Positions 6,449 through 25,745 of a DNA stretch of 26,433 nt are shown here, piece by piece (position 1 is the stretch's first letter; each line of letters opens with the position of its first letter). The notes beneath the pieces were generated by a model that saw nothing but the letters and a program-made list of their open reading frames with translations, was not told where the DNA came from and ran no database searches. This DNA comes from an uncultured Methanosarcinales archaeon (lineage in GTDB: Archaea; Nanobdellota; Nanobdellia; Woesearchaeales; CAZYIM01), in the NCBI GenBank assembly GCA_964647565.1, contig CAZYIM010000034.1, positions 1 through 26,433 of the forward strand, read 5' to 3'. Both the position numbers and the translations under genes were made by a program.

Positions 6449-6986
6449 TCTTGTGGATTATCTTAGGGTTCATTTCTTGCATGGCATTTCCAATCCTGAA
6501 TGCTTTTGCAGAGAAACCACAAAATTTGAGAGTATCATTAATCAGCACTTTTGTTGCCCTGGCACCACCAATTAAGTCTGCGATGAACAGAGGTGCACCC
6601 CGGGTACAAAAAACAGCCGCTTTATGGCCTTTTAACAATCCTTGTGGACGGTCATTCTTAAAAGTGTAAGCAAAATTATTTGTAAAAACCCTATCAACAA
6701 ATCCCTTAAGAATCGCGGGCATGTTGTTCCACCATGTCGGATATATGAATATCAATTTTGATTCTTTCATCTTATACTGGATAGCCTTTATGTCTTTTGA
6801 AAGTTTGCTGGCTTTTTTATCTGTTATTAGTTCATTTGCCTTTAAAACCGGATCAAAGTTCATCTTGTAGAGGTTTAAGACTTCATATTTCTGTTTTCTT
6901 TTGGTCAACTCCATTGTAAGAATATCAAGTAATGCATAGCAGTGGCCTTCCCCAGGCGGATGTGCATAAATGATCAGTATATTCAT
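6408..6986 (-). CDS. NAD(P)H-dependent oxidoreductase, flavodoxin-like fold (Flavodoxin_2; MdaB/KefF/NQO family)
   Basis: ILIIYAHP, LNLYKMNFDPVL, IYPTWWNNMPAILKGFVDRVF and GLLKGHKA. SD AGGTGA at 6996-6991. Confidence 0.92.
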   Translation of the reverse strand: MNILIIYAHPPGEGHCYALLDILTMELTKRKQKYEVLNLYKMNFDPVLKANELITDKKASKLSKDIKAIQYKMKESKLIFIYPTWWNNMPAILKGFVDRVFTNNFAYTFKNDRPQGLLKGHKAAVFCTRGAPLFIADLIGGARATKVLINDTLKFCGFSAKAFRIGNAMQEMNPKIIHKIKKTVEKGLDWLL

Positions 6987-7019: not shown

Positions 7020-7091
7020 CTAATAAAGTTTTTGATTGAAATACATTAATTTTTATCACTAATAAGTAACTAAAATCGAAACATTTAAATA
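7020..7091. promoter_or_regulatory. Divergent archaeal promoters (oxidoreductase / 7116 ORF)
   Basis: Plus strand AAAATCGAAACATTTAAATA (TATA 7084-7091) lies 24 nt before the leaderless ATG 7116. Minus strand CAAAAACTTTATTAG (about 7034-7020) is a weaker TATA for the oxidoreductase. Confidence 0.65.
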
Positions 7092-7115: not shown

Positions 7116-7445
7116 ATGGGACATATTAATCATCAAACCAAGGGAAATCAACTAACTTTGAATGAAATTGATATTCTTAAGACCATGAACATTGCCTACA
7201 TTAAAAATGATAAACAAACACTAGCAAAAGCTACTGAATCCTCAAAACAACCCGAAGTTTTTTATCAAGGTATCAACCAATTACTCGAGTTAGGAGCTCA
7301 CGACCAGATTGTTAATGTGGTAAAGAATCGACCAGTCGGTGTCCGGGCTCAATTATTACAATATTATGTGGAAACACAAAATTTCTTGTATGCTAGTGTA
7401 ATAGCAAGCATGGGCAATGGCATCAAGATTCCTTATAAGAATTAA
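7116..7445 (+). CDS. Hypothetical protein (109 aa, probably alpha-helical)
   Basis: ORF placed at the leaderless distance from a clear BRE-TATA. No motif recognised. Confidence 0.7.
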   Translation: MGHINHQTKGNQLTLNEIDILKTMNIAYIKNDKQTLAKATESSKQPEVFYQGINQLLELGAHDQIVNVVKNRPVGVRAQLLQYYVETQNFLYASVIASMGNGIKIPYKN

Positions 7446-7509: not shown

Positions 7510-7580
7510 AAACGAAATATTTAAATATCTTTCTATGTTCCAAGAATCGGGATATCAATCTAAACTTTGAGTAAGGAGGA
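7510..7580 (+). promoter_or_regulatory. BRE-TATA promoter and SD of the ubiquitin-like operon
   Basis: AAACGAAATATTTAAATA (TATA 7520-7527), near-identical to the 7077-7091 promoter. SD AAGGAGGA at 7573-7580, 6 nt before ATG 7587. Confidence 0.75.
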
Positions 7581-7586
7581 ATTAAG

Positions 7587-8276
7587 ATGGGAACACAGGG
7601 AAAAGAAAAAGAGGTCGTTACATTTGGACGACAATATTTTGATCTTGAACGGGATACAATTCTACGCGTGGGTGCAGAAGGATCTGAGCCAAAAGAGCGT
7701 TACAGTGCCTTTATTGAAGACCAGGAACTCTTGAACGTAGGAACAGATAAAAAAAAGATTGTTACAGGAGATAATCTCTTGAATGGAACCATCGGAGATG
7801 TTCTAACTGATATGATAGAATATGTCAAGTTAGGCATGGATTATCATGCTGCAAAGACAGGTTCAGGAACTTTCAACCACAATGGCTGGATCAACACATA
7901 TACACCTGAATATGGTGGTGAAAAACTTAATACAGCTTACGACAGATGGCTAGAGTTCAAAGCAGATAAAAAGAAAAAAAGACTTTCTATCACAGGAAAA
8001 AAACAAAGGACAGAACCTGAAGAATTGGTCATGGATAACATTGGTAGATGTGAAATCTATCAGGCAGGAAGCACGGAGCCAGATTATATTGTAAATGTCA
8101 TCGATATTGTCATTGAAAAGGATTCTTCAGGCGGACCTAATAAATCTCAAATAGTTGTACCATCTTGGAAGATAGAAACACCAACGACCGAGATAGAAAC
8201 TGTTGATACAGTTCAGTATTCTAGGATTGAACGATTTGCAGGAAAAGCCTTGAAATTTCTCCTAAATAGAGAATAA
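7587..8276 (+). CDS. Candidate ubiquitin-like (beta-grasp) modifier precursor with internal Gly-Gly and a 46-aa C-terminal extension
   Basis: First gene of an operon with E2-like, JAB and E1 genes. It has a TIGDVLTDM helix start (cf. ubiquitin TIENVK) and a terminal-strand-like VIDIVIEKDSSGG (G182-G183, nt 8130-8135; cf. TLHLVLRLRGG). The fold call is inference. Confidence 0.55.
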   Translation: MGTQGKEKEVVTFGRQYFDLERDTILRVGAEGSEPKERYSAFIEDQELLNVGTDKKKIVTGDNLLNGTIGDVLTDMIEYVKLGMDYHAAKTGSGTFNHNGWINTYTPEYGGEKLNTAYDRWLEFKADKKKKRLSITGKKQRTEPEELVMDNIGRCEIYQAGSTEPDYIVNVIDIVIEKDSSGGPNKSQIVVPSWKIETPTTEIETVDTVQYSRIERFAGKALKFLLNRE

Positions 8277-8287
8277 ATATCTTTAAA

Positions 8288-9691
8288 ATGGCTAAGAAAA
8301 GTCTAGGGCCTTTGCCGGACATTGAAATTCCTGACACATACCTTACAAGGATATGTCATGGAACCACTATTCTATTTAATGGAAGAATCTGGAAAAAGGG
8401 AGACTTTGATCCAAAAGCCACAGTTAATTTTATCGATGAAGGCTCTGACAGGGTTAGTCTTATTGATCTGGAAACCTTTGCAAGATTAGAGAACAAATAC
8501 CGAAAAGATAACAATGAAGCCATCAGGGTAGCCCATCAACAGCTTATGAAGCATGACAGGGGATACACTGATATTGATCTTAATGAGCTTGAGATCCAGA
8601 CCATGCTAAAAGCATATGTGGTCGGTAATATCTTCCCAAAATGGGGACTTGGCGACAAGGATCTTGGAAGAGAGGCAAGAGGTATTCTCAAACGAGGTAC
8701 AAATGTGATTGAGGATCAGGTTGAGGATGCTAGGGAAGATACCATCTCATTTTCTAAACAAAAAACACCTGAATCAATTTATGATATGCTTAGACAGAGA
8801 AAGAGGCCTTCATTTAGGAGGGAGACCAAGAAAGCTGTTGATGTTAATGGTGAAAATGGTTTTGATAGGGACAGCATAACTATCTCTAGAAGTGCAGACA
8901 AGAGATCTTTATTGACTACAAAGGTATTGAAAGAAAAGAATATATTCATCCATTATGAAAAGCTCTACACTCTAATCAACAAGCCCTATTTTGATGAGCC
9001 TGTGATCAATTTAAGGGGAAAGCTTTTGTATCCCTATCCTGGCGTCAAAATTGGAAACAAAGATATCTACAACCTTATACAGCTTAGAAAAGCATACAAG
9101 AGAGCATTCTTAAGTCTATTTAGACAAGAGGCCCTTGATAATGATCCTTACAAGAGAAAGTTGAAACATGTCCATGGCCGGCTTGATAATGAGATTAACA
9201 GCGTTCCAGTTCAAAGACAGGGTTTCAGTTTACAGTGGGTGGGAAAAAACAAGGCATATCTTTGCAAGAATATTGATGAATTTGTTCTAAAGGAACTTAA
9301 AAGTGAAGGAAAAAGATTGCATTGGTTTGGACCTACAAAGATTGGTGTGGAATTGACCATGCATACAAGCGGTTCAATCTCACATGGAGCAGTTGTTGTC
9401 ATGGATTCCTATTATCCCTTTCCATTCCTTAATTCTAGCAATCCGAGATCTAATATCTGCACAGGAGACGGTAAGGAGATCTACTCTGATTCATCAAAAA
9501 CAGATGAACAGCAGATAGTTGGAAAGATCAATATCGGTGAACACACAATGTACAGGGGTTATCATGGAACCTTCACTCCACATTCAGAGCTCTCAAATCA
9601 AAAATACAATAAATTACATATTCATTCTCATCACAAGATAATTTCAAAAGACGAAATGGAGGCAAGAAATTTGAAGCCTTCAAATGTATAA
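8288..9691 (+). CDS. Candidate E2-like (ubiquitin-conjugating fold) protein with a long N-terminal extension
   Basis: The C-terminal region has several beta strands, then YYPFPFLNSSNPRSNICTG (Cys391, nt 9458-9460), resembling the HP...IC[LT]G catalytic region of prokaryotic E2s. It sits between the Ubl candidate and the JAB gene. Confidence 0.5.
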   Translation: MAKKSLGPLPDIEIPDTYLTRICHGTTILFNGRIWKKGDFDPKATVNFIDEGSDRVSLIDLETFARLENKYRKDNNEAIRVAHQQLMKHDRGYTDIDLNELEIQTMLKAYVVGNIFPKWGLGDKDLGREARGILKRGTNVIEDQVEDAREDTISFSKQKTPESIYDMLRQRKRPSFRRETKKAVDVNGENGFDRDSITISRSADKRSLLTTKVLKEKNIFIHYEKLYTLINKPYFDEPVINLRGKLLYPYPGVKIGNKDIYNLIQLRKAYKRAFLSLFRQEALDNDPYKRKLKHVHGRLDNEINSVPVQRQGFSLQWVGKNKAYLCKNIDEFVLKELKSEGKRLHWFGPTKIGVELTMHTSGSISHGAVVVMDSYYPFPFLNSSNPRSNICTGDGKEIYSDSSKTDEQQIVGKINIGEHTMYRGYHGTFTPHSELSNQKYNKLHIHSHHKIISKDEMEARNLKPSNV

Positions 9692-9703
9692 GGGTGAAAT
9701 AAA

Positions 9704-11119
9704 ATGAACATGCATGATATGGTTCGGGAAAAAAAGGAAGGTCAACGCACAATAATCAAACCAATTCAGTATCCTACGTTTAGGATCGATAAGCTTAGGA
9801 TCACTCCTAATGCAATGGAAAAGTTATTTCTCTATAGAGATCTACATGATGACCTAACAAGCTCAGGAGATGAGTTTTTTGGTTTCCAAATTAAGCGTTA
9901 CGACGAAAAAGTACCTGGATTATATAGCCTTACACGGGATCTTGTATTAGGTAAAGATCAGGTCAATCATGGATCTCATACTTTGGTGAGAGCTGCACAA
10001 GTACAGGAAGTCATGAGAAGCCTGCATGGGACTGGAAATGGTCCTTGCGGTTGGTGGCATAGGCATCCTGGAAGTTATAGAAGCAGTTCTGGAGAGGATT
10101 TAGGCAATAATCCTATTGTTCTTGAGGGAATACAAACTCATAACCAAGTCCTAGATTACATGATAATACCAATGGATCACATGAAATACGAACTCGAGGA
10201 TTCTGATGATGGAGCTGTGCTTATTTGCACTGACAAGAGGGATCACGGAGAGTATATCATTGATTTGCATTGTACAATAGCAGAGGCCAAGGACAAGCTA
10301 CCTGAAATGAAGAAAAAGAGAATTCCTGTAAAATTGGCATATGCCCATAGTATGATAGTTGCTGGCAAAGATCGGACACCAAATAAGGTCTACACTGAAG
10401 TTATAACCCGCCTATTCCATGGCAACGATCCTAATATCCAAGAAGAGAAGAATGGTAGAGACGGAGGCCTTAGGACCAAGATCGAAATTGTCGAGGTTCC
10501 TGATGATATTATTATTAATAAGGATACAATGGTCAATGAACTTACTGAAAATATCTATATCAAGAAATTCCATAAGCATGGAATCCATTTAAACGTAGGA
10601 CGAGTATTCGGCGATGCTATGATTCATGAACACGACAGAAATTCGGTATATAAAAGATTCCGGGGAGGTTATGAGTTTGTTCATGATCATGATGATAAGA
10701 TTAGCAAAGAGACGTGGATTGAAACTGCAAAACCCTATTTATTGGATCATTTATCACTTCAAGAAGTTAATGAATGGGAAGATAAGGTCCTGAATGAGAA
10801 AAAGATCCCTATCATCGAGAAAGTGACTAGCATTCTCAAAGATGAAAAGACTATTGCAGACAAGGTCACAGATGAAGCTGCAACAAAGGATAAAACTGTT
10901 ACAGCAGAAGATGCTGTTGTTGATAAAACCAAACCAGAATTGGGAAAAATTAATCCATTTATGAAATTTGTATATGCAATTTTCAAACCAAGCAAACTAA
11001 ATAAAAAAGATAACAAGCAACTTGCGAAGGAATACAGAGCAGATAATGGTGCCGAACCTGTCAAAGCAAAGACTGATGCAACTAAAAATGAAGACACCCC
11101 AAATAAGGGAGTAAATTAA
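9704..11119 (+). CDS. JAB/JAMM (MPN+) metalloprotease, putative deubiquitinase / Ubl-maturing enzyme
   Basis: Exact JAMM motif E57...H119-x-H121-x7-S129-x2-D132 (GDEFFGF...GWWHRHPGSYRSSSGED), preceded by the typical LRITPNAMEKL strand-helix. SD AGGGTGA. Confidence 0.88.
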   Translation: MNMHDMVREKKEGQRTIIKPIQYPTFRIDKLRITPNAMEKLFLYRDLHDDLTSSGDEFFGFQIKRYDEKVPGLYSLTRDLVLGKDQVNHGSHTLVRAAQVQEVMRSLHGTGNGPCGWWHRHPGSYRSSSGEDLGNNPIVLEGIQTHNQVLDYMIIPMDHMKYELEDSDDGAVLICTDKRDHGEYIIDLHCTIAEAKDKLPEMKKKRIPVKLAYAHSMIVAGKDRTPNKVYTEVITRLFHGNDPNIQEEKNGRDGGLRTKIEIVEVPDDIIINKDTMVNELTENIYIKKFHKHGIHLNVGRVFGDAMIHEHDRNSVYKRFRGGYEFVHDHDDKISKETWIETAKPYLLDHLSLQEVNEWEDKVLNEKKIPIIEKVTSILKDEKTIADKVTDEAATKDKTVTAEDAVVDKTKPELGKINPFMKFVYAIFKPSKLNKKDNKQLAKEYRADNGAEPVKAKTDATKNEDTPNKGVN

Positions 11120-11152
11120 GAAATAGAAATTAAAACGAGAACATAAGAAAAA

Positions 11153-12691
11153 ATGAGTGAAGATAGGTATTCAAGACAGAAAAAAATAGAAGGCTGGGAC
11201 CAGCAGATGCTGGAAGATGCCAATATAGCTATGGTAGGTGATGGGTCAGTCGCATGTTTTGGCGGAGCCTTGATGGCTGCACTGGGTATTGGAAGATCCT
11301 GTCTTTATGGTAATTCCAGATTCAAGGGATACCACCCTGATGAGTTTATGTATGCTGAACTTACCAAAGGCAAGAGAAAGGTCAGGGGACTTGAACAGAG
11401 TATGAAACAGATCAATCCAACTATTGACGTAGAAAGCTATCGTTGGGCATTTCTCAGGGACTATTTCACAGACATCTTCTCAGATAATACATCTGCCATA
11501 TTTGACACTACCAATGATCCCCGGACTGAGGCTGCCTTGTTCTCTCATGCAATGACTGCAGATGTGCCTATTGTGAATGCATCTTGTAAAAAATTCAGGG
11601 GAGAATTGTCTGTCTATATGCCTACTGGAGAATTCAAGCATCTAACCTCTTTAGATCATGAAGAAATCACAAAGGAAACACCTTATCAGCTACTATCAAG
11701 AACCTATAATACCAGAATGGAACAGGATCCTGTTACAGCCTCTTTAATTGCAGGTTTAGCAGTCGATGAGATCAGGAAGATTGTCATGCCCTTGAAATTC
11801 GAGACTGTTAAAGATCAAAACGGTAATAAGATACGGAAAAGCAAGGAGCCGACACTTGAAGGCAGGCTTATCTATGACATCCTGACAGATGATCTGGTAC
11901 ATAGGACAACTAAGTTAAAATCAGGATTTCAACGCGTATACCATCCTGGAAATTTTCAAAATGATATTGTGGCAGCAGTTGTCGGAGCAGGATCTCTTGG
12001 AAATGTTGTAAGTCTACTACTGACTATTATGGGCATTAAACATTATATATTCGACAAGGACATCTATGAGGATGCTAATGTCAACAGACAGATCATGGCA
12101 GTGCTTTACGGTAACGATGTTGGAAAAGCCAAAGCATTATCACTCGCTGAAAAAGACCAGAGGATCAATTATAGGACCAAGGTTGTTGGTGTAAATGATT
12201 GGTTTACACCAGACACCAAGTTCAAGGGCAGGCAACCAGACGTCATATTTGATTGCACCGATAAATACACAGCAATGGAGGCTATTAACTATTGGTCCAT
12301 AAAGAATAAGAAACCCGTCATCACAGGCCATACAGGACCTACAGACGGCCAGACATTTTTCTCTGATATTTATAATGGCATGGAATGTCTTGATGGAAGG
12401 ATGAATGTTATTGAAAATGCTAACATTGAACGAAATCCGGAAAGTTGCATACAGCAATCCAACCCATCTGTAATTATCGCGAACTGGATCATGGGTTCAG
12501 TCATGGTCGATCTCTTCAGGAGATATGCCATGGGTTTACCTGTTGTCAGCTCAAGAGTTAAGTATGATACTAATATTGGCAACAGATTGGCTTCATTGCC
12601 TAACACAACAATGTGCAGATACAAGGATTCTGATGATACAAAACATTACAAGAAATGCGATCACATTGATTATTGTAAATTCGAGGTTTAA
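11153..12691 (+). CDS. E1-like activating enzyme with two tandem ThiF/MoeB adenylation domains
   Basis: The N-terminal domain (DRYSRQ...GWDQQMLEDANIAMVGDGSVA) has a degenerate nucleotide loop. The second domain has intact VVGAGSLG (G278), FDKD..EDANVNRQ, GKAKA, DVIFDCTD and a candidate catalytic Cys432 in PESCIQQSNPS. Confidence 0.92.
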   Translation: MSEDRYSRQKKIEGWDQQMLEDANIAMVGDGSVACFGGALMAALGIGRSCLYGNSRFKGYHPDEFMYAELTKGKRKVRGLEQSMKQINPTIDVESYRWAFLRDYFTDIFSDNTSAIFDTTNDPRTEAALFSHAMTADVPIVNASCKKFRGELSVYMPTGEFKHLTSLDHEEITKETPYQLLSRTYNTRMEQDPVTASLIAGLAVDEIRKIVMPLKFETVKDQNGNKIRKSKEPTLEGRLIYDILTDDLVHRTTKLKSGFQRVYHPGNFQNDIVAAVVGAGSLGNVVSLLLTIMGIKHYIFDKDIYEDANVNRQIMAVLYGNDVGKAKALSLAEKDQRINYRTKVVGVNDWFTPDTKFKGRQPDVIFDCTDKYTAMEAINYWSIKNKKPVITGHTGPTDGQTFFSDIYNGMECLDGRMNVIENANIERNPESCIQQSNPSVIIANWIMGSVMVDLFRRYAMGLPVVSSRVKYDTNIGNRLASLPNTTMCRYKDSDDTKHYKKCDHIDYCKFEV

Positions 12692-12703: not shown

Positions 12704-14614
12704 ATGAAAAAGGACGATAAAAAATCAAAACTGCATGAGTATTTTCTAAGTACTGCAAAAGACGAGGAGGATGAACAAGTACCTGAGGAAGTCAAAAGGA
12801 TGTATCTTCTTTGGTCTCCTACCGACATACAAAGAGCAAAAGACCGCTGGCAGAATCTTAACAGGCACGACCTTTACAAGATCTTGGCTGACCAGCATGA
12901 AAAATTGATTAAAAAGGGTGAAGAACGTCCTCTTACAGATGAAGAAAAGAAGGGTATTTTTGAAAAGATAAATGCTCTCAACCCGTTCATTGACCAGGCT
13001 AATGGAGACGAGACAATGAAAAAAGATCTTGTCCAGATTGCTTCTGACCACGGTCTTAACCCAAAAGACTTGGTAGTGAGAGCAGCTCAATATCTAAGTG
13101 GAAAAATCGATCCAAACTCACTTAAGAGATATGAGAAAAAACTTCATGAAGAGATGATCAAGACCAGGAAATCTGGTTTCAAGGAGGCAAAAAGACGGGG
13201 CATGCAAGAATGGAAGGAGCAGTTCCGCCCTAACCGGATCATCATGAGAAGGACCTTGCGAGCATTAGGTATTGTTGCTGCACTTGGAATTGCATTTGCA
13301 TTTTACACTTCTTTTAAGTCGGAGAGAGCCAAGAGAAATTTCTATGACAAAGTAGTCGAAGAGGTGCGCGGAGGAGGTTCTGGCGCTGATGCTAGGCAGT
13401 CTCAGGTTGATGATAATTATACTCCTAAAGAGCATCTTGACAACATTGTCAAAGGGATTACAGGTAGTCAAGATTCTACTGAAGTAAAAACTGAGCAGAG
13501 ACAAGAACAGCAAAGACCTCCCGTGGAAAAGCCTAAACCAAGGCCGCCTGCAACAATATCTTCAATTGTTGATTCTGTATACAAGCAGATCAAGGATGAC
13601 AATCTGAAGGCCCAGACTTTCAAGGTCAATCCTGTTAATGTCAGTTATACTAATCTCACCAATAGCGGATCTGTATCAAGACTTAAAAGAGCCCTTGAGA
13701 TGGAAATAGGTAATCAAAGCTATGTGACGACCATAAGCAAGGCAAGACTTGCACAAAAAATAGATAGTTTAAAAAACATTGTTTCAGACTATCCTCAAAG
13801 TCAACAGGCATATGAGGCCCAGCTTGAAGTTGCTAAGCTTTCTTTTGAGCATATGGAGATACTAAATGTAGATGGCTTTAAAGAGTATCAACAGTTAATA
13901 ACTCTCTTTGGAAATACTAAGGAGATTTCTACTAATTTCATGAAAGTTTTGATAGACAGGAAGTGGGCAGCGGATTGGTGGAAGATACAACAGTCAGACC
14001 GACAGGAATCTGCTGTCGCCCAAAAGAGCAGGATAGCTAATAAAATTGTCCAGTGGCTTGAGAATCAAGCTATCAAAACCAATCCTGTTGGTTACGAAGC
14101 AAACTATATACTAGGTCAGATTTTAGCAGGAGAAAAAGAGCTGCAGAGCGTTTATCAAAAAGATGCAAATGACTTAATATACCTTCACACAGAATTCCTT
14201 TCTAGTGTTTCAGGATTAGACAAATCAAATAATGCGATGCAGGCAAGATATTCTGCAAGTGCAAGGGGAGGCTGGGATCGAGCTGCTCGAGCCAAGTTTT
14301 CTTATGCAGTCGGTTCAGGACGAAATAATGGTAGCAAACTTAAGAATCTTGCAGATGCCTTGAAATATGACCAGAAGGCCCGATGGGTTCCAAGAGCAAT
14401 TTATCTGATAGCAGAGACTGAAGTTCAGATGAAGAATATGGATCTGGCTGAAGACTGCATGAATTTCTTACAGAAAAATTTCCCAGGTAATGAATCCAGT
14501 GGAGTCGGAAGTCTTGTAAGGCAGATATCAGATTACAGAGCAAAACAGGTTGAGGTGGCAAAGGCTAAGTCGGAAGCTGATTATAAAAAACTAAAGGAGA
14601 AAAGTCGTAAATAA
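12704..14614 (+). CDS. Single-pass membrane protein with a charged N-terminal domain and C-terminal TPR-like repeats
   Basis: Basic stretch then hydrophobic ALGIVAALGIAFAFY (about residues 187-201), a Pro/Gln linker, and BamD/YbgF-like TPR signatures IVSDYPQSQQAYEAQLEVAKL and AIYLIAETEVQMKNMDLAEDCMNFLQKNFPGN. Confidence 0.7.
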   Translation: MKKDDKKSKLHEYFLSTAKDEEDEQVPEEVKRMYLLWSPTDIQRAKDRWQNLNRHDLYKILADQHEKLIKKGEERPLTDEEKKGIFEKINALNPFIDQANGDETMKKDLVQIASDHGLNPKDLVVRAAQYLSGKIDPNSLKRYEKKLHEEMIKTRKSGFKEAKRRGMQEWKEQFRPNRIIMRRTLRALGIVAALGIAFAFYTSFKSERAKRNFYDKVVEEVRGGGSGADARQSQVDDNYTPKEHLDNIVKGITGSQDSTEVKTEQRQEQQRPPVEKPKPRPPATISSIVDSVYKQIKDDNLKAQTFKVNPVNVSYTNLTNSGSVSRLKRALEMEIGNQSYVTTISKARLAQKIDSLKNIVSDYPQSQQAYEAQLEVAKLSFEHMEILNVDGFKEYQQLITLFGNTKEISTNFMKVLIDRKWAADWWKIQQSDRQESAVAQKSRIANKIVQWLENQAIKTNPVGYEANYILGQILAGEKELQSVYQKDANDLIYLHTEFLSSVSGLDKSNNAMQARYSASARGGWDRAARAKFSYAVGSGRNNGSKLKNLADALKYDQKARWVPRAIYLIAETEVQMKNMDLAEDCMNFLQKNFPGNESSGVGSLVRQISDYRAKQVEVAKAKSEADYKKLKEKSRK

Positions 14615-14626
14615 AGAGGTTGAGCT

Positions 14627-16162
14627 ATGAAAAAATTCCTTAAACAGCTGGGATGGACTGCACTCCTTGGACTTGGATTGCTTACAGGATGTTCGAGTGA
14701 TGATGAAGTTGTTGAACCTGTTGTTGTTAATCCAAAAGATGCTTCTATTAGAGAACTAGTTGAACAAGAAGAGCTTTATAATGGCCAGACTGTGCGGACT
14801 TTTGGAAAGGTCGTTGCAATTTCTGACCATGATTATATAGAAAATCTAAATCCCCAGCACGATGTTACCATAAGGATATTAAATACTTTCTTGCACAAAG
14901 TCGATCTTTTTAGGACTTATAGTCTTGAAAAAGCTGATAAAGCAGGAATTGCCAGCTTTCAATCCGGCATGCTTGATCTAGAACAACTTAAAGTAACTCG
15001 CTCATCACTATCTGCAATAGGTTTGTTCAACAATGGAAAGATCAGGTACACCAAGCTTATCTCACCATCCGGAGATATCTTGTTTGAGCGACATGATATC
15101 CAACCTCAGGAATTCAGGGGCAAGATTGTTGATCTAAACCAGATGAAGTATTCTTCTGCTGGGGGAAGTACCTATTACCAGTCAACCCTAAAGCTGAAAA
15201 AAGAAGATGATAAATTTTTTTCATTTGTATTTAATCTGGCTTCTCTTAATGCTTATAATAAATATATTAATTCCAATGTTGTAGTCAAATGCACCCAGGA
15301 ACTTATCAACAATAAATCCTTTGTTGGTGAAGAGATTGAATATATAATGCCGAAACCTCCAGAGCTAGACAAGAAAAAAAGAGCCTTTTGGCAAAAGCTG
15401 GGTGGTGCAGAGGTTAGCGCAGAGCTAAAAGAACTTTATTCTGCCATTGGAAAAGAGGAAGCCCTTTTCAAGGATATAAAGAAGCAGGACAGGGAATTGA
15501 CTTTTGGCGCTGCAATGGTCGTCTATGACGAGTCAAAAAGGATATGGGATCTTGCTGTTGCTAATAATTGCAAGGAGCTGATAGATATCAGTGTTGATCT
15601 GACCAAAGAGGCAGCTTATTCTATGGTCAACCTGAAGGAATATGGCCTTGCTGCTGAGATGTTTAAGTCAAGAGCTATGGATGAGACAGGTTATGGAGTC
15701 ATCACTTCAGGTATTTACTCATTATCTGTTGACGGCAGACATTATGATGCTGCCCGGCTTGCACAAAGTTACAGGCTTGATGATGATGTAGCAACCCAGT
15801 ATGATAAGTGCATTGACCGCCTTTTGGACAGAGCTCTTTGGGCTGAAGCCTGGGATGTGATCCAGGAAGCTAATTCAGGCTTTGAATACAGGGAAAAGAT
15901 AGCAGAAATCAAGGAAGAATTATCTGAAAAACAACAGAAGTTTGCTGTTGGCGACAGCGTCCACACTTATGTTGATTATGCTTTACAGAATAACAAGAAT
16001 GCACGGTTTTATGGGCCTTCAATCAAGGATTTTTATGGCAGGATCGTCTCATTTCCAGATATTGGCCGTGCTGAGATCAATGGATGGCATGTGACTGCCA
16101 ATGATACCACCCAGTTCAAGGGCATTGTACCTGTTGACAGGATGAAGAAAAAGAAGGATTAG
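14627..16162 (+). CDS. Putative lipoprotein (possible OB-fold N-terminal region, helical-repeat C-terminal region)
   Basis: Signal peptide MKKFLKQLGWTALLGLGLLTG-C with lipobox LTGC. SIRELVEQEELYNGQTVRTFGKVV is OB-fold-like. SD AGAGGT. Confidence 0.72.
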   Translation: MKKFLKQLGWTALLGLGLLTGCSSDDEVVEPVVVNPKDASIRELVEQEELYNGQTVRTFGKVVAISDHDYIENLNPQHDVTIRILNTFLHKVDLFRTYSLEKADKAGIASFQSGMLDLEQLKVTRSSLSAIGLFNNGKIRYTKLISPSGDILFERHDIQPQEFRGKIVDLNQMKYSSAGGSTYYQSTLKLKKEDDKFFSFVFNLASLNAYNKYINSNVVVKCTQELINNKSFVGEEIEYIMPKPPELDKKKRAFWQKLGGAEVSAELKELYSAIGKEEALFKDIKKQDRELTFGAAMVVYDESKRIWDLAVANNCKELIDISVDLTKEAAYSMVNLKEYGLAAEMFKSRAMDETGYGVITSGIYSLSVDGRHYDAARLAQSYRLDDDVATQYDKCIDRLLDRALWAEAWDVIQEANSGFEYREKIAEIKEELSEKQQKFAVGDSVHTYVDYALQNNKNARFYGPSIKDFYGRIVSFPDIGRAEINGWHVTANDTTQFKGIVPVDRMKKKKD

Positions 16163-18705: not shown

Positions 18706-20481
18706 ATGCAAATGAGTAGTACACCATCAGAAATAAATGATGCAGATTTCAACAAACATCTGAAGAGTTCAATAAAGTATATGGGACAACAAAACTTCTT
18801 TGGTTTCCTGCCAAACCTACATTCAACGATTATCCCTCCAGAAGTTCCATTCATCGATCCTGTACAGTATAATACTGTAATGGCCTTTGCTGATTCTTGC
18901 GCAGCATATAAGGTTATCAAAGAAAAGATGTCATATAATCTACTTGATTATAACAAGGAAAGAACCGTAAAACCTACTAAGACTGAATTAGATGCTCAAG
19001 AAAGGTTGGTCCAGATATACAGTCTGTATGTAGCCACATCAATAGGCATGAAAAAGTTGGCAAATACAACTAATGTCCAGGAAGAAGCTACCATAAAACT
19101 AAAAAAAGAAGATTTTAAGCATTTCAATGAATTTGATTTCTCAAAACAAGGCTCCGACATGTTCAATCAGTTCGCAAATCATTATATAGGTCTTATTCTT
19201 AATGCCAACAAAGCTGGGAAAATCAGGAATGGTGCAGACTTCAATGTTTTTTCACAAGGTTATCTTGCATCTATAAATGAAAAGGCTAATTATGAAAAAA
19301 ATGACGGCATCTACAAACCGTTAATGGGAATAATTGAAGGGCAGCCTATAAGTCTTCTTGGTATGAATTTCAGGGGATTTCAAGAAGCATTGCTAAGAAC
19401 ACTCGATCCAGAATCTCTACCTAAACTCGAGTGGGTCATTGCCATGGATGCTGTCAAGGAAGCAGCTGTCCAGATGGTTGATAATATAATGTGCTATGAT
19501 TTTGAGGCCAAGAAAAACTCTCAGGATCCCTGCAGGCAGGTCATGTATGTTCCTGGCCCTTCAGGCTGTGGAAAGACCTTCACTGCAGAAGCTGTTCAAA
19601 GATATTTTATCGAACAAGGAGAACAATATAGAAAACCAACCAATGTGTTTACATTATCTCCGGACATGTTCAAGACATCTTATATGAATGAAGGTCCTAA
19701 CAACTTGATTGCTATATTTAGGGATAAGGTCTATACGCCAAATACCCTGAATTTCATGTACATTCCGGATCTGGACACAATCATTGCATCAAGAAGTGCT
19801 GCAAAAGCTGCAAACAGGATTGAAGATGCAAACCTTACAGGAGTCTGGTTCAGCCAGCTATCTGGCAGTAACCGACCAGATACAGGCAGGTGGATGATCT
19901 ATGCTGATACCAACTACCAGGTTAATGATCCAGCACTCTTAGGAAGGTTAGGGCAGCCGATAATTGCCTCAGGTCCAAAAACGCAGGATGACCTTATAGC
20001 TCTTATGCGAATTGAGTTGAAAGATGGATTCTTGCCTAATAAGAATTATGTTAAACTCAAAGATAAGGAATGGAAAGAAGTAGGAAAACTGGCTGAAGAA
20101 TATGCTGCAGAGGCTAATCTGTCTGGAAGAGATGTAAGAAACATTTGCGAGACTCTAAGTAATCATGCTAACCAGTTCAAGCTGCCAAAGGGTTTCCAGG
20201 GCTGGTCATATCAAAAACAACTTGATCATAAAGCTAAACACCAGGTTTACAAGCCAATAACAGCTGGGATGTTAAAAAAGGAACTTAATACCTATGTTGA
20301 AAGTGTGAAGGCTGCTGTGGACAGGGAACAAGAAGAGAAGAAAGCCAAGATCATTGAAGATCTGCATCTTACAAGAGAGGCTTATGCTTCTGATGAAGAA
20401 TCAAGGATAAGTCTCTTTAGAGAGTTGGCTGCTCAGATACCTAAAGATCAGATGGTAAGTATAATCAGGAAAGTTATCTAA
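18706..20481 (+). CDS. Classical-clade AAA ATPase with a degenerate Walker B
   Basis: Walker A GPSGCGKT (residues 284-291), pore-loop region KTSYMNEGPNNL, Walker B position FMYIPDLD, SRH-like DTNYQVNDPALLGRL and lid LSGRDVRNIC. The ~235-aa N-terminal domain is unassigned. Confidence 0.88.
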   Translation: MQMSSTPSEINDADFNKHLKSSIKYMGQQNFFGFLPNLHSTIIPPEVPFIDPVQYNTVMAFADSCAAYKVIKEKMSYNLLDYNKERTVKPTKTELDAQERLVQIYSLYVATSIGMKKLANTTNVQEEATIKLKKEDFKHFNEFDFSKQGSDMFNQFANHYIGLILNANKAGKIRNGADFNVFSQGYLASINEKANYEKNDGIYKPLMGIIEGQPISLLGMNFRGFQEALLRTLDPESLPKLEWVIAMDAVKEAAVQMVDNIMCYDFEAKKNSQDPCRQVMYVPGPSGCGKTFTAEAVQRYFIEQGEQYRKPTNVFTLSPDMFKTSYMNEGPNNLIAIFRDKVYTPNTLNFMYIPDLDTIIASRSAAKAANRIEDANLTGVWFSQLSGSNRPDTGRWMIYADTNYQVNDPALLGRLGQPIIASGPKTQDDLIALMRIELKDGFLPNKNYVKLKDKEWKEVGKLAEEYAAEANLSGRDVRNICETLSNHANQFKLPKGFQGWSYQKQLDHKAKHQVYKPITAGMLKKELNTYVESVKAAVDREQEEKKAKIIEDLHLTREAYASDEESRISLFRELAAQIPKDQMVSIIRKVI

Positions 20482-20482
20482 G

Positions 20483-22213
20483 ATGGATGATATCAGAAAA
20501 CTGATCGAAAAGAGACTAAGGGACAAGGTTAGAAAGCCTTTGCCTGATGATCCAACTAGTCCTCCGCCTGAAGAAGTTCAGGAATCAGAATCAAGCGAAC
20601 TTTATCCGCCTATAATAGGATCTGGAAGTGTAACAGCTTCATCTATTCGGGATTTGATCGAACAAAGAAACCGGGAACGTCATGGCATTGGTTCTCGACA
20701 AACTGGTTCTCAAACTAGACAGACCGGACCAGTAGAGCATCACGGCAGCGGTATGCTGGATAACATTAGGAACAGGAAGAAAAAGAAGTTCGATGCAACC
20801 AGGAAAAAGCGTAGCAATCCTTCGGAACTCTTAAGATCCAGCCATACATTGAAACTTCATGAATTAACCGGAAGCAAAGCAGAGGCTTATACCAATATAT
20901 TAAAAGAGATTGGAGCTTATCAGGATATTGTCAAGAAAGAGCCTAGTTTTGATTTTTCTCATTATGAGGTTGACAAGGGAGGCTGTGATAGGAGAATAAT
21001 GGAGATCGCACCTGATTATCTTGATAATCATATCGTCATTGTTACGCCGCACCAGAAAAACATGGATATTATTCGGAACAATTATTCATTCTTAGATCCT
21101 TTGCTTGAAGCCATCATGAATGGTGCTGCTAAAGAGACTATTGCAAGGATTGCCCCTCACGAACCATTATATGGGGAACTTAAATCAGGATTAGTAAATC
21201 TAATCGAACAATTAAATTTTGGAGCCAATCACATTGTTGATGAGGATTTTTTCTCAGTCACTTTATCACTTGACACACCAAAAAAAGCGATAAAGAAAAT
21301 GGTTGAGATCCAGAAGGATGTAAGCAAGATCCTTGACCAGGATAATGATGGAGTGCTTCAACTTCTGAATTACGATCTTGAGGATAAGATTGCATCTGCT
21401 TCTGCAGAGCTCAATGCAACTTATGTGAATATTACACCATTTATCCTTGGTGATGCAAGTGAGTTCATAGTTCAGGACATCTTCCCATTACAGCTAGAGA
21501 CCAGCTCATACAAGTTTTCAACTGATGAAATAGACATCTATAGTTTCAAGACCAATAAATATGTTTTTATATATTTTGACAAAGGGGAAGACACAGTAGA
21601 TAACAAGAACATAGATATCCGCAACTTTGTTGTCATAAATGGCAATGATCCAGACAACCTTCTAGCGTATCTAAGGGACTTGAAGTTCATTGATTATAAT
21701 TTCAATCAATTCTTTGTTGAAGAAAAGATGCAGCATATTGAGGCAAGGGACTTTGAAAGGTATAAACGTACTCAAATATCAGGATTAGCAGATGAAATTG
21801 ATAAGCTTGGCCAGGATAAAGATCATCATTCCGAACTCTATCATCAACTCAAAAAGGTTCATGATGATATTGCAAAAGATAATATTGGCAATGAAACCGA
21901 CTATCTTAAGACACTCCCTTTACAGGTCAAGATGCAGTTGATGTTTCCACGGGTAGACGATCCATTAGTTTATGAGATATTATCCAATGTAAATAAAAAC
22001 GAGATGTTGATGACATATTCATGGGATACTTCTAAGTTCAAGTTGCAATTTGCTGCTGCAAAGCCCAAACAGCAAAAAGAGATGCTGCAGGAAGTGCTTG
22101 AAGGCATCAAATACGAAGATCAGTATAATCTTGCTGTCAATGAGTGGCTGCATGACAACTACAAACCTCTTTGCGACGAACTTAAAGTAAAGTTTAAGGG
22201 TGGTGAGCAATGA
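20483..22213 (+). CDS. Hypothetical protein, DUF6638-like core with a disordered N-terminus
   Basis: Starts 1 nt after the AAA stop, with ~115 low-complexity residues. The following AEAYTNILKEIG...HYEVDKGG...DYLDNHIVIVTPHQK...YGEL resembles my recollection of the DUF6638 N-terminal pattern (unverified). Confidence 0.55.
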   Translation: MDDIRKLIEKRLRDKVRKPLPDDPTSPPPEEVQESESSELYPPIIGSGSVTASSIRDLIEQRNRERHGIGSRQTGSQTRQTGPVEHHGSGMLDNIRNRKKKKFDATRKKRSNPSELLRSSHTLKLHELTGSKAEAYTNILKEIGAYQDIVKKEPSFDFSHYEVDKGGCDRRIMEIAPDYLDNHIVIVTPHQKNMDIIRNNYSFLDPLLEAIMNGAAKETIARIAPHEPLYGELKSGLVNLIEQLNFGANHIVDEDFFSVTLSLDTPKKAIKKMVEIQKDVSKILDQDNDGVLQLLNYDLEDKIASASAELNATYVNITPFILGDASEFIVQDIFPLQLETSSYKFSTDEIDIYSFKTNKYVFIYFDKGEDTVDNKNIDIRNFVVINGNDPDNLLAYLRDLKFIDYNFNQFFVEEKMQHIEARDFERYKRTQISGLADEIDKLGQDKDHHSELYHQLKKVHDDIAKDNIGNETDYLKTLPLQVKMQLMFPRVDDPLVYEILSNVNKNEMLMTYSWDTSKFKLQFAAAKPKQQKEMLQEVLEGIKYEDQYNLAVNEWLHDNYKPLCDELKVKFKGGEQ

Positions 22214-23088
22214 GAAGAGGCAGAAGCACGATTGGTTTTGAATTGACGCTATCTGTTTTAGTTTTAGGATTAGTTGGAGCCGTTCTTTGGCCCAAAATAA
22301 GTGAAAAAAAAAAGCAAAATACAATAGCTGAGAAAGTAAGATCTGCAAAGCAGGTCACTAGAGTGGTCAAGCAGCATGAATCTTCATATGCAATCTCAGA
22401 TGCCAAGTTGCTCAATGTCAATGAGGGTGTTGTTGACTTCAAGACTAAAGAAGGCAAGCCAGGAAGCAGGATGTACAAGTTATGCATATTTCAAACTGAT
22501 AATGATCCTAAATATTTCCTTCTTCCAGCACCTCAAGCTTTAGCACCGATGAAAAAATATGTTATTCAATATAACAACATATATAGGGTCTCAGATTTTA
22601 CGACAGAACGGTTTGTTAACCAGCATATTAACTCTACCTACATCACAGAAAGTGATAAGATTATTGATCCTCAACTTGACGGCGTTATAACCAATCTAGA
22701 CCTTAATGAAAAAACATGTACAAACTCATTGGCTACAGAGGCCACTAAACATCTGCCTGCAGCAAAATTCCTCTACTCTACCAACGATATGATCAAGTAT
22801 TATGATGAAGAAGGGAATACAGGCACACATTTCTACCAGCTTTGTACTTTTCAGATAGGCAACCAGATCACTGAGCTGTTGAATCCTAATCATAAAGCAT
22901 TATGGCCAAACAGGATGTATGAAATCGAGATCGATGAGGTTCATAAAAATCCGCAAACATTCACAACAGGTAACCTCGCATTGATGTATGCGTCTAATAA
23001 ACTTGTAAAAGTTGTAGATAACAGATTAATCGATCCAAACCTGGATGGCGTAATCAAGGATATAAAAATGGTCGGGGTTCTACGATGA
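22210..23088 (+). CDS. Membrane-anchored protein with two copies of the array domain (paralog 1)
   Basis: N-terminal TM helix, then two repeats: AKLLNV...YKLCIF...LLP...IIDPQLDGVI and AKFLYS...YQLCTF...LLNP...LIDPNLDGVI. ATGA overlap with the upstream gene. Confidence 0.85.
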   Translation: MRRGRSTIGFELTLSVLVLGLVGAVLWPKISEKKKQNTIAEKVRSAKQVTRVVKQHESSYAISDAKLLNVNEGVVDFKTKEGKPGSRMYKLCIFQTDNDPKYFLLPAPQALAPMKKYVIQYNNIYRVSDFTTERFVNQHINSTYITESDKIIDPQLDGVITNLDLNEKTCTNSLATEATKHLPAAKFLYSTNDMIKYYDEEGNTGTHFYQLCTFQIGNQITELLNPNHKALWPNRMYEIEIDEVHKNPQTFTTGNLALMYASNKLVKVVDNRLIDPNLDGVIKDIKMVGVLR

Positions 23089-23675
23089 TGAGCCCCATGA
23101 TACGAAGAGGTTTAAAAGTAGCAGGAATTTTTGCTGGACTTTTTTTCGTTGGAGCCATGATAGTTGACATCGCTGATAGTTTCAAAAACAACAATACTGC
23201 AATAGCCAATAATGCACAACCAACTGCTCAAGAAGATTCTCTTGCAAGAGCTGTGGATGATACTAGCACAGGTTATGTAGATAGGATTGTTCGAATGATA
23301 CCTCCTCAAGCTGAGGTTTCATTAGAAGAGAACATACCTACTGCAAAGCTTATATCAGTACAAGATGATATTGTCTCTTTCTATAATCCAGATGATAGAC
23401 AAAGTAGTTACAGGGGAACCAGGCTGATCAAACATTGCTCATTCCAGGTTGGAACTGAGATAAGGGAATATTTGATGCCATCTGGCAAGGCATTGATACC
23501 TATGCGGATGTATGAACTCGATGTTGAGAAGCTGGAAAAACCAGAGGAATACACTGCAATAATGTTTGTCCAAAGATTTCTTCATGAAGATTACAGCTCA
23601 AGAGACAAGCGTGTCATTGATAAGAATCTTGATGGGATTATCTTAGATTATAAGCTTCTGGAGGGTCCAAAATGA
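23085..23675 (+). CDS. Membrane-anchored array paralog 2
   Basis: N-terminal TM helix and IPTAKLISV...CSF...YLMP...VIDKNLDGII. ATGA overlap. Confidence 0.85.
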   Translation: MMSPMIRRGLKVAGIFAGLFFVGAMIVDIADSFKNNNTAIANNAQPTAQEDSLARAVDDTSTGYVDRIVRMIPPQAEVSLEENIPTAKLISVQDDIVSFYNPDDRQSSYRGTRLIKHCSFQVGTEIREYLMPSGKALIPMRMYELDVEKLEKPEEYTAIMFVQRFLHEDYSSRDKRVIDKNLDGIILDYKLLEGPK

Positions 23676-24172
23676 ACAAACTGGCAACAGGATTGATGAT
23701 AGCAATGATGGGAATTACTCTTGGATACGCTCAAACTGAAGCCCTTGCAAGTTTACCAATTCAAGAAAAGGCTGCAAAAGAAGAAAAAAAGCCGGCGCTT
23801 GATAACATACCTGCTGCAAAGCTATTGGCAGTCAATCAGGATAATTTCATACTCTATCTAAAGGAGGATCATCGTGTTAGTGCAAGTAGGAATTTTCAAC
23901 TTTGTTCATTTTTAGTAGGAACAGAGATAAGGGAATATCTTTTACCTACTGTCAAGGCCTTAGTACCCATGAAGATGTATCAGCTTGAGATCAAGATAAT
24001 CAATAATGCAAAGAATTACAAAACAAGCAATCTTGCTACAGAAGGTCTCAATATTGATAGCTGGGAACTTAAAGATAATCGAGTAATTGACAAGAACCTT
24101 GACGGAATAATCATGGATTACAAACTTCTGAGAGGTCCAAAATGAGAAGGCTAGCAACTGGACTATTGATAT
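23612..24172 (+). repeat. Degenerate ~90-bp direct repeat spanning gene junctions 2/3 and 3/4
   Basis: GTCATTGATAAGAATCTTGATGGGATTATCTTAGATTATAAGCTTCTGGAGGGTCCAAAATGAACAAACTGGCAACAGG (from 23612) versus GTAATTGACAAGAACCTTGACGGAATAATCATGGATTACAAACTTCTGAGAGGTCCAAAATGAGAAGGCTAGCAACTGG (from about 24083). Confidence 0.8.
23672..24145 (+). CDS. Secreted array paralog 3
   Basis: Signal peptide MNKLATGLMIAMMGITLGYA (no lipobox Cys) and IPAAKLLAV...FQLCSF...YLLP...VIDKNLDGII. ATGA overlap. Confidence 0.85.
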   Translation: MNKLATGLMIAMMGITLGYAQTEALASLPIQEKAAKEEKKPALDNIPAAKLLAVNQDNFILYLKEDHRVSASRNFQLCSFLVGTEIREYLLPTVKALVPMKMYQLEIKIINNAKNYKTSNLATEGLNIDSWELKDNRVIDKNLDGIIMDYKLLRGPK

Positions 24173-24732
24173 CAACGATAGGACTGGGTCTTGGATGTCA
24201 GATAGACACAGATAATTCTTACGAGGATACATTCGCTCCTGTTGCCACTGAAGAAAAAGTTGAACCCACACCTGCTGAAAAGTTAGAAGAAAAAAGAAGC
24301 AAAGAAAGCGTAAAAAAAGAAGATGGTTCTGTTATGTTTATCAATACTAAGGAAGAATACACAATTGATGATATTGCAGAATCAAGTATCATAGATTTAC
24401 CTGGCGCAAAGTTAAATGGCTTTACCATTGACAATGTGGATTACTTATGGTGGATGACTACCGATCCTACAGGACACAGGAGATACCAAATGGTTGAGTT
24501 TCAGCTTGCAGAAGGTCCAACGCTTCTATTGTTGCCAAATGTTAAGCATCTAAATCCTCAAACAAGATATGACATTTCATATAAAAGATTACACGAGGAT
24601 GTCAAGCTAGACAAATATCTCTTTACAAGGATTTTCATCAACACAATATACACCTGCCTTGACAACCAACCAATGGATGAAAGCATCAAAGGCATTGTCA
24701 CCAGTATCAAACCAGTGGAGGGACTGAAATGA
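24142..24732 (+). CDS. Lipoprotein array paralog 4
   Basis: Lipobox GLGC and LPGAKLNGF...YQMVEF...LLLP...MDESIKGIV. ATGA overlap. Confidence 0.85.
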   Translation: MRRLATGLLISTIGLGLGCQIDTDNSYEDTFAPVATEEKVEPTPAEKLEEKRSKESVKKEDGSVMFINTKEEYTIDDIAESSIIDLPGAKLNGFTIDNVDYLWWMTTDPTGHRRYQMVEFQLAEGPTLLLLPNVKHLNPQTRYDISYKRLHEDVKLDKYLFTRIFINTIYTCLDNQPMDESIKGIVTSIKPVEGLK

Positions 24733-25229
24733 GAGCACTGGCAACAACTATGCTGGCAACAATGCTTAGTTTTTATGCAATGAGTTGCAGCACTCAAAAA
24801 AAAGAAGATAACGCCATCCCACCTTTGCCACCTATTGCTGCAGTGGCTGAATTAGACACTGTTTCAATTCCAGGAGCTAAACTCAGCTGGTACAACGATG
24901 GTTCAGCAGAATACATTCATGGAGATAGAAGTGGTAATACAAGCTACGGATTCAGCTCTTCAAGAGACTATCAACTATGTGACTTTGACATAGGTGGCAA
25001 GGATGTCAAGCTCTTGGCACCAAGAGTATACCAGATCACACCACAAAAACGCTATGATATCCAATACCTGCCGATGAAAGAGGGTCAATACCTGAACATA
25101 AAGAAATTCATCCATCTATTTGTCAGGAATGACAATATGGAAGATGTCAGGGTTCCTGATAATCATGAGATGGACAGGGACATAAGAGGCATACTTATCG
25201 ATATAAAACCAATGGAGAACATAAAATGA
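24729..25229 (+). CDS. Lipoprotein array paralog 5
   Basis: Lipobox AMSC and IPGAKLSWY...YQLCDF...LLAP...MDRDIRGIL. ATGA overlap. Confidence 0.85.
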   Translation: MRALATTMLATMLSFYAMSCSTQKKEDNAIPPLPPIAAVAELDTVSIPGAKLSWYNDGSAEYIHGDRSGNTSYGFSSSRDYQLCDFDIGGKDVKLLAPRVYQITPQKRYDIQYLPMKEGQYLNIKKFIHLFVRNDNMEDVRVPDNHEMDRDIRGILIDIKPMENIK

Positions 25230-25745
25230 ACTGGAAAAAAGGATTAATAATACCAGTGATAGGATTGACACTTCTAAGTTGTGCTTCTGATGAAAAGATT
25301 GAGCCAGAAAAGATGGAAAAGACATCCACGATCAGCTTAATAGAACAGAATATTGAAAAGGTACCATCTGCAAAACTGATTTCTGTTAATGATGGTTATG
25401 CAAATTATGCGTTTACAAAATCTAGTGGCGCATACCAAGGATTTGGTTATGGGAATTTTAGGCATTATCAATTATGTACGTTTTTAACTGCTCCCAATAA
25501 AATCGAAGCTTTGTTGCTGCCTGAATCTAGAGCATTGATGATCAATTCTAGATACAATTTAAACTATAAGAAATTAAAAAATCCTTCAACATTCACTGTT
25601 GAACAATTTGTCCATAGTTATGTCAGCAATACATTCACTGTTTTTGACAAGATAGAACTGATAGATCCAAATCTGGATGGAATTATAACCAACTTAAAAC
25701 CAATAAGGTAAAAGAAATGAACTGGAAAAAAGGATTAATAATACC
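25224..25745 (+). repeat. 31-bp exact direct repeat covering the start of paralogs 6 and 7
   Basis: AAATGAACTGGAAAAAAGGATTAATAATACC at 25224-25254 and 25715-25745. Confidence 0.9.
25226..25711 (+). CDS. Lipoprotein array paralog 6
   Basis: Lipobox LLSC and VPSAKLISV...YQLCTF...LLLP...LIDPNLDGII. ATGA overlap. Confidence 0.85.
   Translation: MNWKKGLIIPVIGLTLLSCASDEKIEPEKMEKTSTISLIEQNIEKVPSAKLISVNDGYANYAFTKSSGAYQGFGYGNFRHYQLCTFLTAPNKIEALLLPESRALMINSRYNLNYKKLKNPSTFTVEQFVHSYVSNTFTVFDKIELIDPNLDGIITNLKPIR

Follow-up and report, generated by a model that had tools for sequence, protein, structure and literature searches.

Outside the eukaryotes, complete cascades of a ubiquitin-like protein (Ubl), an activating enzyme (E1), a conjugating enzyme (E2) and a deubiquitinase (DUB) have been described in a few archaea (Caldiarchaeum, Asgard) and in the bacterial Bil, Bub and CBASS systems, and their origin is debated. 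In case of Bil, the DUB pre-processes the Ubl, and an E1 composed of an inactive and an active adenylation domain (IAD-AAD) acts together with an E2 and without an E3 (10.1101/2023.09.26.559546; 10.1101/2023.09.04.556158; PMC11354881). Such pseudo-dimeric E1s are described for Bil and for the eukaryotic E1s (10.1101/2023.09.26.559546). Type II BilB carries a CEHH motif, and sampylation works without an E2 (PMC11354881 for both). The operons of Caldiarchaeum and Asgard archaea encode Ub, E1, E2, a small RING E3 and an Rpn11-like protein (PMC3082918, PMC5654768); further literature on the topic was consulted as well (10.1101/2024.10.26.620412; 10.1101/2024.11.21.623966). Here, four genes on the + strand of contig CAZYIM010000034.1 are described, the whole stretch of 26,433 nt being referred to as the window. 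It is likely that they encode a Ubl-conjugation cascade of a DPANN archaeon, which would work in a Bil-like manner with different E2 and Ubl families and would represent a previously undescribed family. A literature search, with subscription journals, the supplements on Bil operons and newer Pfam/InterPro content outside its scope, did not turn up an account of a system of this kind from DPANN archaea.

Candidate components of the cascade

The cluster comprises the genes of a Ubl precursor (229 aa, 7587..8276), an E2-like protein (467 aa, 8288..9691), a JAMM/MPN+ metalloprotease referred to as JAB (471 aa, 9704..11119) and an E1 (512 aa, 11153..12691), all predicted as open reading frames (ORFs) on the + strand and separated by gaps of 11, 12, and 33 nt. 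An earlier note, made from the letters of the window alone, had listed four tightly packed genes with an exact JAMM motif, a two-domain ThiF E1, a P-F-L...I-C-T-G segment and a strand-GG motif; the ORFs are situated as placed there, and all four sequence features were recovered at the positions given below.

No match of the E2-like protein was obtained in Pfam, NCBIfam, PADLOC, or PHROGs, and the other 32 members of its alignment likewise lack a match in Pfam, NCBIfam, and PADLOC. A word-indexed search of 5.8 billion proteins returned three relatives, and 40 were retrieved at E<=0.001 in a full HMMER run over 1.84 billion cluster representatives. Among 33 aligned sequences, which share 16-40% identity with the window protein, Cys391 (nt 9458-9460) is the sole invariant column. 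This residue is part of the ICTG motif (390-393) and is located 10-14 residues past a consensus (Y)xHPF(L/I/V), which in the window reads FPFL within PFPFL (377-381) and of which Pro379 is at least 90% conserved. The signature of UBC enzymes is HPN followed by Cys, and at the level of sequence the HPF...Cys391 arrangement resembles it; the conserved Cys shortly after an HPN-like motif by which the UBC superfamily is recognized is present in the E2-like family. A cysteine-protease reading of this gene was rejected, since no conserved His or Asp accompanies Cys391 in the 33 sequences, which makes a thiol protease unlikely.

In the AlphaFold2 (AF2) model of the E2-like protein (pLDDT 82.2), the N-terminal beta/helical modules span residues 18-142 and 205-310 with a disordered linker (147-204) between them, and a UBC-like core is predicted at the C-terminus (approximately 285-467). 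UBC/RWD matches were obtained for this model in structure comparisons; in the wide VIA search of the whole model, helical-bundle rows over residues 90-312 predominate, and Foldseek against the PDB returned nothing at E<=0.001. The family profile compared to PDB sequences gave L23 matches at chance level only (E at least 0.35), and an ESM Atlas feature search with residues 285-467 reached an uninformative top score of 0.78.

In case of the JAB protein, HRHPGSYRSSSGED at residues 119-132 (nt 10058-10099) is an exact HxHx7SxxD (H119, H121, S129, D132), and the upstream EFFGF supplies Glu57, so that the zinc-site motif E...HxHx7SxxD is complete. The JAB domain (approximately 30-165) is followed by a long C-terminal extension. 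The window protein has no Pfam match of its own and a weak PADLOC JAB match (8.3e-5); the JAB protein of the operon relative L013 is matched by Pfam Prok-JAB (3.1e-8, 33.9 bits at a cut-off of 25), and of the 45 family members 30 show the JAMM motif in its exact form.

The E1 is matched by Pfam PF00899 (ThiF) in two stretches (3e-36, 125.2 bits at a cut-off of 28.1), which correspond to an N-terminal, degenerate, IAD-like ThiF domain (approximately 1-160) and an active ThiF domain (AAD, approximately 270-465) with the motifs GAGSLG (278-283) and NVNRQ (309-313) as well as Cys432 (nt 12446-12448). Across 32 operon-linked relatives, G278 and G280 (GxGxxG), D301, D303, N309 and R312 (NxNRQ), K327, and D370 are invariant in the second domain and C412 and C432 nearly so; the first domain keeps only the scattered positions R8, G29, T120, and N121. 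Because the ATP-site motifs are invariant in the second domain only, the aligned sequences mark the E1 as an inactive-plus-active pseudo-dimer in a single chain. Cys432 lies in a short crossover loop of approximately 20 residues (19 residues between C412 and C432 in the window protein), and the insertion of approximately 80 aa in the AAD crossover loop known as the CYS domain is absent from all 32 aligned E1s. Among PDB sequences, MoeB (4.4e-37) and the eukaryotic adenylation domains of Uba1, Uba6, SAE2, and UBA3 (approximately 1e-33) come closest to it, BubCD and Cap2 being more distant. The protein stays far under every NCBIfam equivalog cut-off, MoeB and ThiF included, and reaches 53.2 bits at the cut-off of 450 for UbaA (NF047750). 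In L011 (5917-7353), the E1 is split into an IAD ORF (197 aa) and an AAD ORF (271 aa) by one in-frame TAA (6508-6510), which points either to a genuine E1 of two subunits that recalls the heterodimeric E1s of eukaryotes, or to a pseudogene or an error in sequencing.

For the Ubl precursor, Pfam, NCBIfam, PADLOC, and PHROGs gave no family match, and a word search returned near-identical relatives only. Residues 172-183 (IDIVIEKDSSGG) consist of a hydrophobic strand followed by xxxxGG, which closes the domain; Gly182-Gly183 (nt 8130-8135) is followed by a C-terminal tail of 46 residues with a predicted helix (212-227). An alignment was built from 36 small ORFs that immediately precede the E2-like genes of related loci. 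At the respective columns GG is present in 21 and xG in 32 of the 36, fractions that are somewhat flattering because four upstream ORFs (L054, L058, L062, L081), whose tails lack a Gly-type motif, had been dropped beforehand. Every aligned sequence runs on for 1-46 residues, the tail of the window protein being the longest.

The AF2 model of the precursor (pLDDT 69.9) contains strands at 8-13, 24-30, 39-43, 133-135, 153-158, and 165-176 as well as helices at 69-87 and 111-126; the loops at 46-58 and 86-107 are of low confidence. Its matches in the wide VIA structure search are ubiquitin-like folds nearly throughout, MoaD chains included, and Foldseek against the PDB gave nothing at E<=0.001, with Caldiarchaeum ubiquitin (6fj7) at rank 15 (E 0.44). 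The model is consistent with a beta-grasp with two long disordered insertions (residues approximately 20-183). A complex prediction of the E1 with Ubl residues 1-183, run without controls, scored 0.00 against a mark of 0.32 and weighs neither way on binding.

Linkage, distribution and genomic surroundings

Best E2-like matches were taken with up to ±8-9 kb of their surroundings, which gave 46 stretches including the window and 51 E2-like ORFs, and these stretches were scored with hidden Markov models from the JAB and E1 proteins of the operon. For 39 of the 51 E2-like genes, JAB and E1 are both located at most 7 kb downstream on the same strand; due to the selection of the loci as best E2-like matches, the linkage fractions apply to strong family members only. 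Of the other twelve E2-like genes, six are followed by under 1.6 kb of contig, in L054 the JAB overlaps the called E2-like ORF, and five (the tandem pairs in L058 and L062, and the gene in L063) have room yet lack JAB and E1. Tandem duplicated E2-like genes were observed in L056 (8312-11671), L058 (2780-6325), and L062 (8040-10961). An ORF of 90-260 aa is situated directly upstream, on the same strand, of 42 of the 51. The gene order is mostly E2-like, JAB, E1, except for one subfamily with the order E2-like, E1, JAB. A metagenome contig of 2.4 kb (L002) carries an ORF ending in IIDIVLEKDSSGG plus eight residues, followed by an E2-like gene (40% identity) and a JAB gene.

The E2-like profile matches in 76 of 401 genomes sampled from the order of the window, in 49 of 281 high-quality genomes and in 64 of 258 genera, and several of the 76 hold two to five copies. 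Two of them (G120, G303) are flagged as unpublished; without these the count is 74 of 399, and no other result depends on them. In a phylum-wide sample, 54 of 401 genomes match, 14 of which belong to other orders of the same class. The 33-sequence alignment is too diverged to yield search patterns; scans with a close E2-like alignment found nothing in genome contigs or in viral contigs (IMG/VR), nor did a scan of the viral contigs with the subfamily alignment, all of these being pattern-based and hence weak negatives.

The window is contig C34 of the archaeal genome bin G000 (2.68 Mb, 86.9% complete, 1.85% contamination), which has another copy of the cassette, strongly diverged, on contig C9 (C9:61000-75265; L065 5005-10428). 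This copy consists of a 221-aa protein ending in IIPG plus a tail, an E2-like protein of 474 aa, a JAB of 613 aa, an E1 of 494 aa, and a protein of 1243 aa. A cysteine-desulfurase-like gene is located two genes upstream of it, and likewise in L079 and L080; in this paralogous subfamily the desulfurase-like genes are matched by SspA/DndA models (1e-34 to 1e-37). Another contig of G000 matches the archaeal small-subunit rRNA model of Rfam with 1405 bits, and the sampled genomes of the same order span 0.6-2.3 Mb, small sizes that fit a DPANN lineage for the host, as had been presumed before. The bin itself exceeds every sampled genome of its order, being either a DPANN genome of unusual size or a bin in which admixture went undetected. 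The sequence occurs in eight DNA sequencing runs from two studies (marine or seawater metagenomes), with no RNA run among those listed.

A single BRE-TATA promoter had been proposed for the four genes. The motif CGAAATATTTAAATA is indeed present at 7513..7527 (+), 60 nt upstream of the Ubl ATG, and from general knowledge of archaeal promoters we take it to be BRE plus TATA; the transcription unit, however, probably has six genes rather than four, because gaps of 12 nt continue to 12704 and 14627. The corresponding pattern CGAAAnnTTTAAATA occurs twice in the window (7513-7527 and 7077-7091) with 0.05 matches expected, and none of 100 shuffles reached two. A Shine-Dalgarno-like AAGGAGG (7573..7579, +) was read from the sequence 7 nt before the Ubl ATG. 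The second copy of the pattern precedes a family-less 109-aa ORF (7116-7445), which may be co-regulated with the Ubl gene because the only copies in the window precede these two.

The probable fifth gene (12704..14614, +, 12 nt after E1) encodes a 636-aa protein with one hydrophobic segment (approximately 184-206) and a weak TPR/BamD-like region (weak YfiO/TPR_6 matches). Its homologues are located directly after E1 in L011 and one gene later, past an ORF of 204-249 aa, in L046 and L067, a membrane-anchored TPR-like protein thus being common to these loci and the window. The possible sixth gene (14627..16162, +, 12-nt gap) encodes a predicted 511-aa lipoprotein (LLTGC lipobox) without relatives in the other operon loci compared, and its membership in the system is uncertain; the first wider gap (165 nt) follows at 16162. 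The housekeeping genes uvrB, purA, and guaB are situated 2.7 kb upstream of the operon on the same contig, and the 10 kb downstream are made up of tightly packed unannotated ORFs, among which an AAA+ ATPase and a weak match to D5_N were noted. As stated in the earlier note, RING, CD-NTase, and sulfur-transfer families were not found, here among the 25 window ORFs scanned.

The AAA+ ATPase (18706-20481; PF00004, 1.6e-7) is followed by a family-less 576-aa protein (region 18706-22213). Homologues of both lie no farther than about 6 kb from the operon in L046 (1422-4695) and L067 (1365-4696), the two genomes sharing the pair including GW2011_AR15 (G390, CP010425.1) of the same order; in L055 (11941-12729) the ATPase homologue occurs alone. 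This recurrence may reflect a functional link, the ATPase serving, e.g., to unfold proteins that have been tagged, or synteny by inheritance. Other AAA+ proteins adjoin the operons in L059, L061, and L085. Ser/Thr protein kinases follow seven operons (Pkinase 6e-31). In one subfamily, comprising L013, L048, L049, L052, L054, L056, and L057, E1 is consistently followed by a family-less protein of approximately 280 aa and the kinase. For this subfamily the arrangement suggests phosphorylation-coupled tagging. A transglutaminase-like protein (1.5e-13) follows another set of operons, and a domain of unknown function was found downstream of operons in 14 proteins of 272-1243 aa. At the end of the window (22210-26199), the gene of a 292-aa membrane-anchored protein precedes six ORFs of 157-196 aa, tightly packed or overlapping, which are paralogues with signal peptide/lipobox-like N-termini and a common C-terminal D-x-N-L-D-G-I...K motif; none of these has a Pfam or PHROG match.

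Proposed cascade and alternative explanations

The proposal, made in the earlier note, of a divergent and self-contained Ubl-conjugation system is supported by the predicted folds, the motifs, the conserved catalytic residues and the linkage of the genes, and from these observations we infer its chemical steps, targets and biological role. The JAMM protease would cut off the 46-residue tail of the 229-aa precursor and thereby expose Gly182-Gly183. Adenylation of Gly183 would then fall to the second, active ThiF domain within the single pseudo-dimeric E1 chain, and the Ubl would be loaded as a thioester onto Cys432 in the short crossover loop, from where it would be handed to Cys391 of the E2-like protein. 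Without an E3, the large N-terminal modules of the E2-like protein would select the target lysines, perhaps aided by the conserved downstream transmembrane (TM)/TPR-like protein, and the JAB might also reverse the mark.

Conjugation without an E2 as in the SAMP/UbaA type, with the E1 alone activating and conjugating, the JAB maturing and removing the Ubl and the 467-aa protein being a non-catalytic UBC/RWD-like adaptor or a substrate, is unlikely, since a single invariant Cys across sequences of 16-40% identity is hard to reconcile with an adaptor, 39 of the 51 E2-like genes are linked to E1 and JAB, and the E1, with 53 bits, stays well short of the 450 bits required by the UbaA equivalog. The MoeB chain as top single PDB sequence match of the E1, the MoaD chains among the fold matches of the Ubl, and the cysteine-desulfurase-like genes in L065, L079, and L080 would agree with a sulfur-carrier pathway. 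In this case, a carrier of the ThiS/MoaD kind would be adenylated and thiocarboxylated by the ThiF-like enzyme to serve in the thiolation of cofactors or tRNA, the remaining genes being accessory. We nevertheless regard this as highly improbable, because MoaE, ThiG, rhodanese, and desulfurase families were not found in the window, the E1 stays far under all MoeB/ThiF equivalog cut-offs, and a cleavable tail, a JAB protease, and an E2-like partner with an invariant Cys are features of conjugation systems rather than of sulfur relay; furthermore, pseudo-dimeric IAD-AAD E1s are known from Bil and eukaryotes (10.1101/2023.09.26.559546).

Quite improbable is also a virus or mobile-element cassette that serves the element, in virion assembly or counter-defence, and not the cell. 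The patchy, multi-copy distribution and the unannotated, tightly packed 10 kb downstream with the AAA+ ATPase and the weak D5_N match would be in agreement with such a cassette; against it stand the uvrB, purA, and guaB genes 2.7 kb upstream, the ThiF domain as the only PHROG match, the lack of an integrase or tRNA in the window, the nature of the small downstream ORFs as paralogous lipoproteins and, as weak negatives, two IMG/VR pattern scans without a relative.

For the favoured Ubl-conjugation cascade, the patchy, multi-copy distribution and the swappable accessory genes suggest an accessory, non-essential and fast-evolving function. Antiviral defence is a tentative candidate for this role, at somewhat less than an even chance; the main alternative is the regulation of envelope/cell-surface, host-interface, or proteostasis proteins. 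PADLOC, considered beforehand as a check for defence, was uninformative here: on 133 flanking proteins it returned generic kinase, AAA+, cysteine-desulfurase, and PDC-S07 matches only and no defence-island signal. More speculatively, and with doubt, the family could be an E3-independent, ubiquitination-like machinery of a whole DPANN lineage, with an E1 intermediate between the homodimeric MoeB/UbaA type and the IAD-AAD-CYS E1s of Bil and eukaryotes, an oversized E2 that selects targets directly and interchangeable partners, i.e., a programmable tagging directed against viruses or used by episymbionts in remodelling the cell surface or host interface. The intermediate position of the E1 would rest on the fused inactive and active domains with the Cys still in a short MoeB-like crossover loop, and the partner modules would be the TM/TPR protein with its AAA+ neighbours here and Ser/Thr kinases or a transglutaminase-like protein elsewhere.

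If the cascade is as proposed, it constitutes a third, sequence-distinct family, common in an archaeal radiation that is very large and of which little is understood. Since its Ubl and E2 components escape standard annotation, it would be overlooked in current surveys of defence or ubiquitin systems in archaea. A pseudo-dimeric E1 without a CYS domain bears on the evolution of the canonical E1s, and due to the small size of the four proteins the prediction is testable by in-vitro reconstitution without cultivation.

Comparison with described conjugation systems

The mismatch with the canonical systems that had been pointed out before holds, two membership features of Bil and those of UbaA/SAMP and of the Caldiarchaeum type being absent from the locus. 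In contrast to CBASS, with Cap2 (an E1-E2 fusion) and Cap3 (a JAB), and to Bub, the window has no CD-NTase, encodes E1 and E2 as separate genes and contains a dedicated Ubl, and the PADLOC matches span the adenylation domain only. From SAMP/UbaA with HvJAMM1 it differs by the linked E2-like gene with its invariant Cys, by a two-domain E1 (UbaA is single-domain) far below the UbaA cut-off, and by a Ubl made as a tailed precursor. With the operons of Caldiarchaeum and Asgard archaea, it shares an archaeal operon joining Ubl, E1, E2, and JAMM protease; however, no RING E3, ubiquitin, or UQ_con family was found among the window ORFs and family members, the E1 is a fused pseudo-dimer, and the lineage is DPANN, not TACK or Asgard.

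The closest likeness in gene content is to Bil (Type I and Type II), which gives protection against viruses by attaching its Ubl to a virion protein. Bil also encodes Ubl, E2, JAB DUB, and E1 in that order, an order that recurs in relatives of the window, and its E1 likewise has inactive and active adenylation domains. The differences are a Cys-bearing crossover loop of approximately 20 residues in the window E1 instead of the alpha-helical CYS domain of approximately 80 aa in Bil, an E2-like protein of 467 aa that matches no E2 profile and, having no conserved Glu/His/His after Cys391, has no CEHH and is set apart from BilB by description, a Ubl predicted as one beta-grasp with large insertions instead of one to three compact domains, an archaeal host, and a conserved TM/TPR-like fifth gene. 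Because its E1 lacks the CYS domain and its E2, without CEHH, falls outside the BilB families, the window system is not a member of Bil; it is a variant of prokaryotic Ubl conjugation that would work like Bil.

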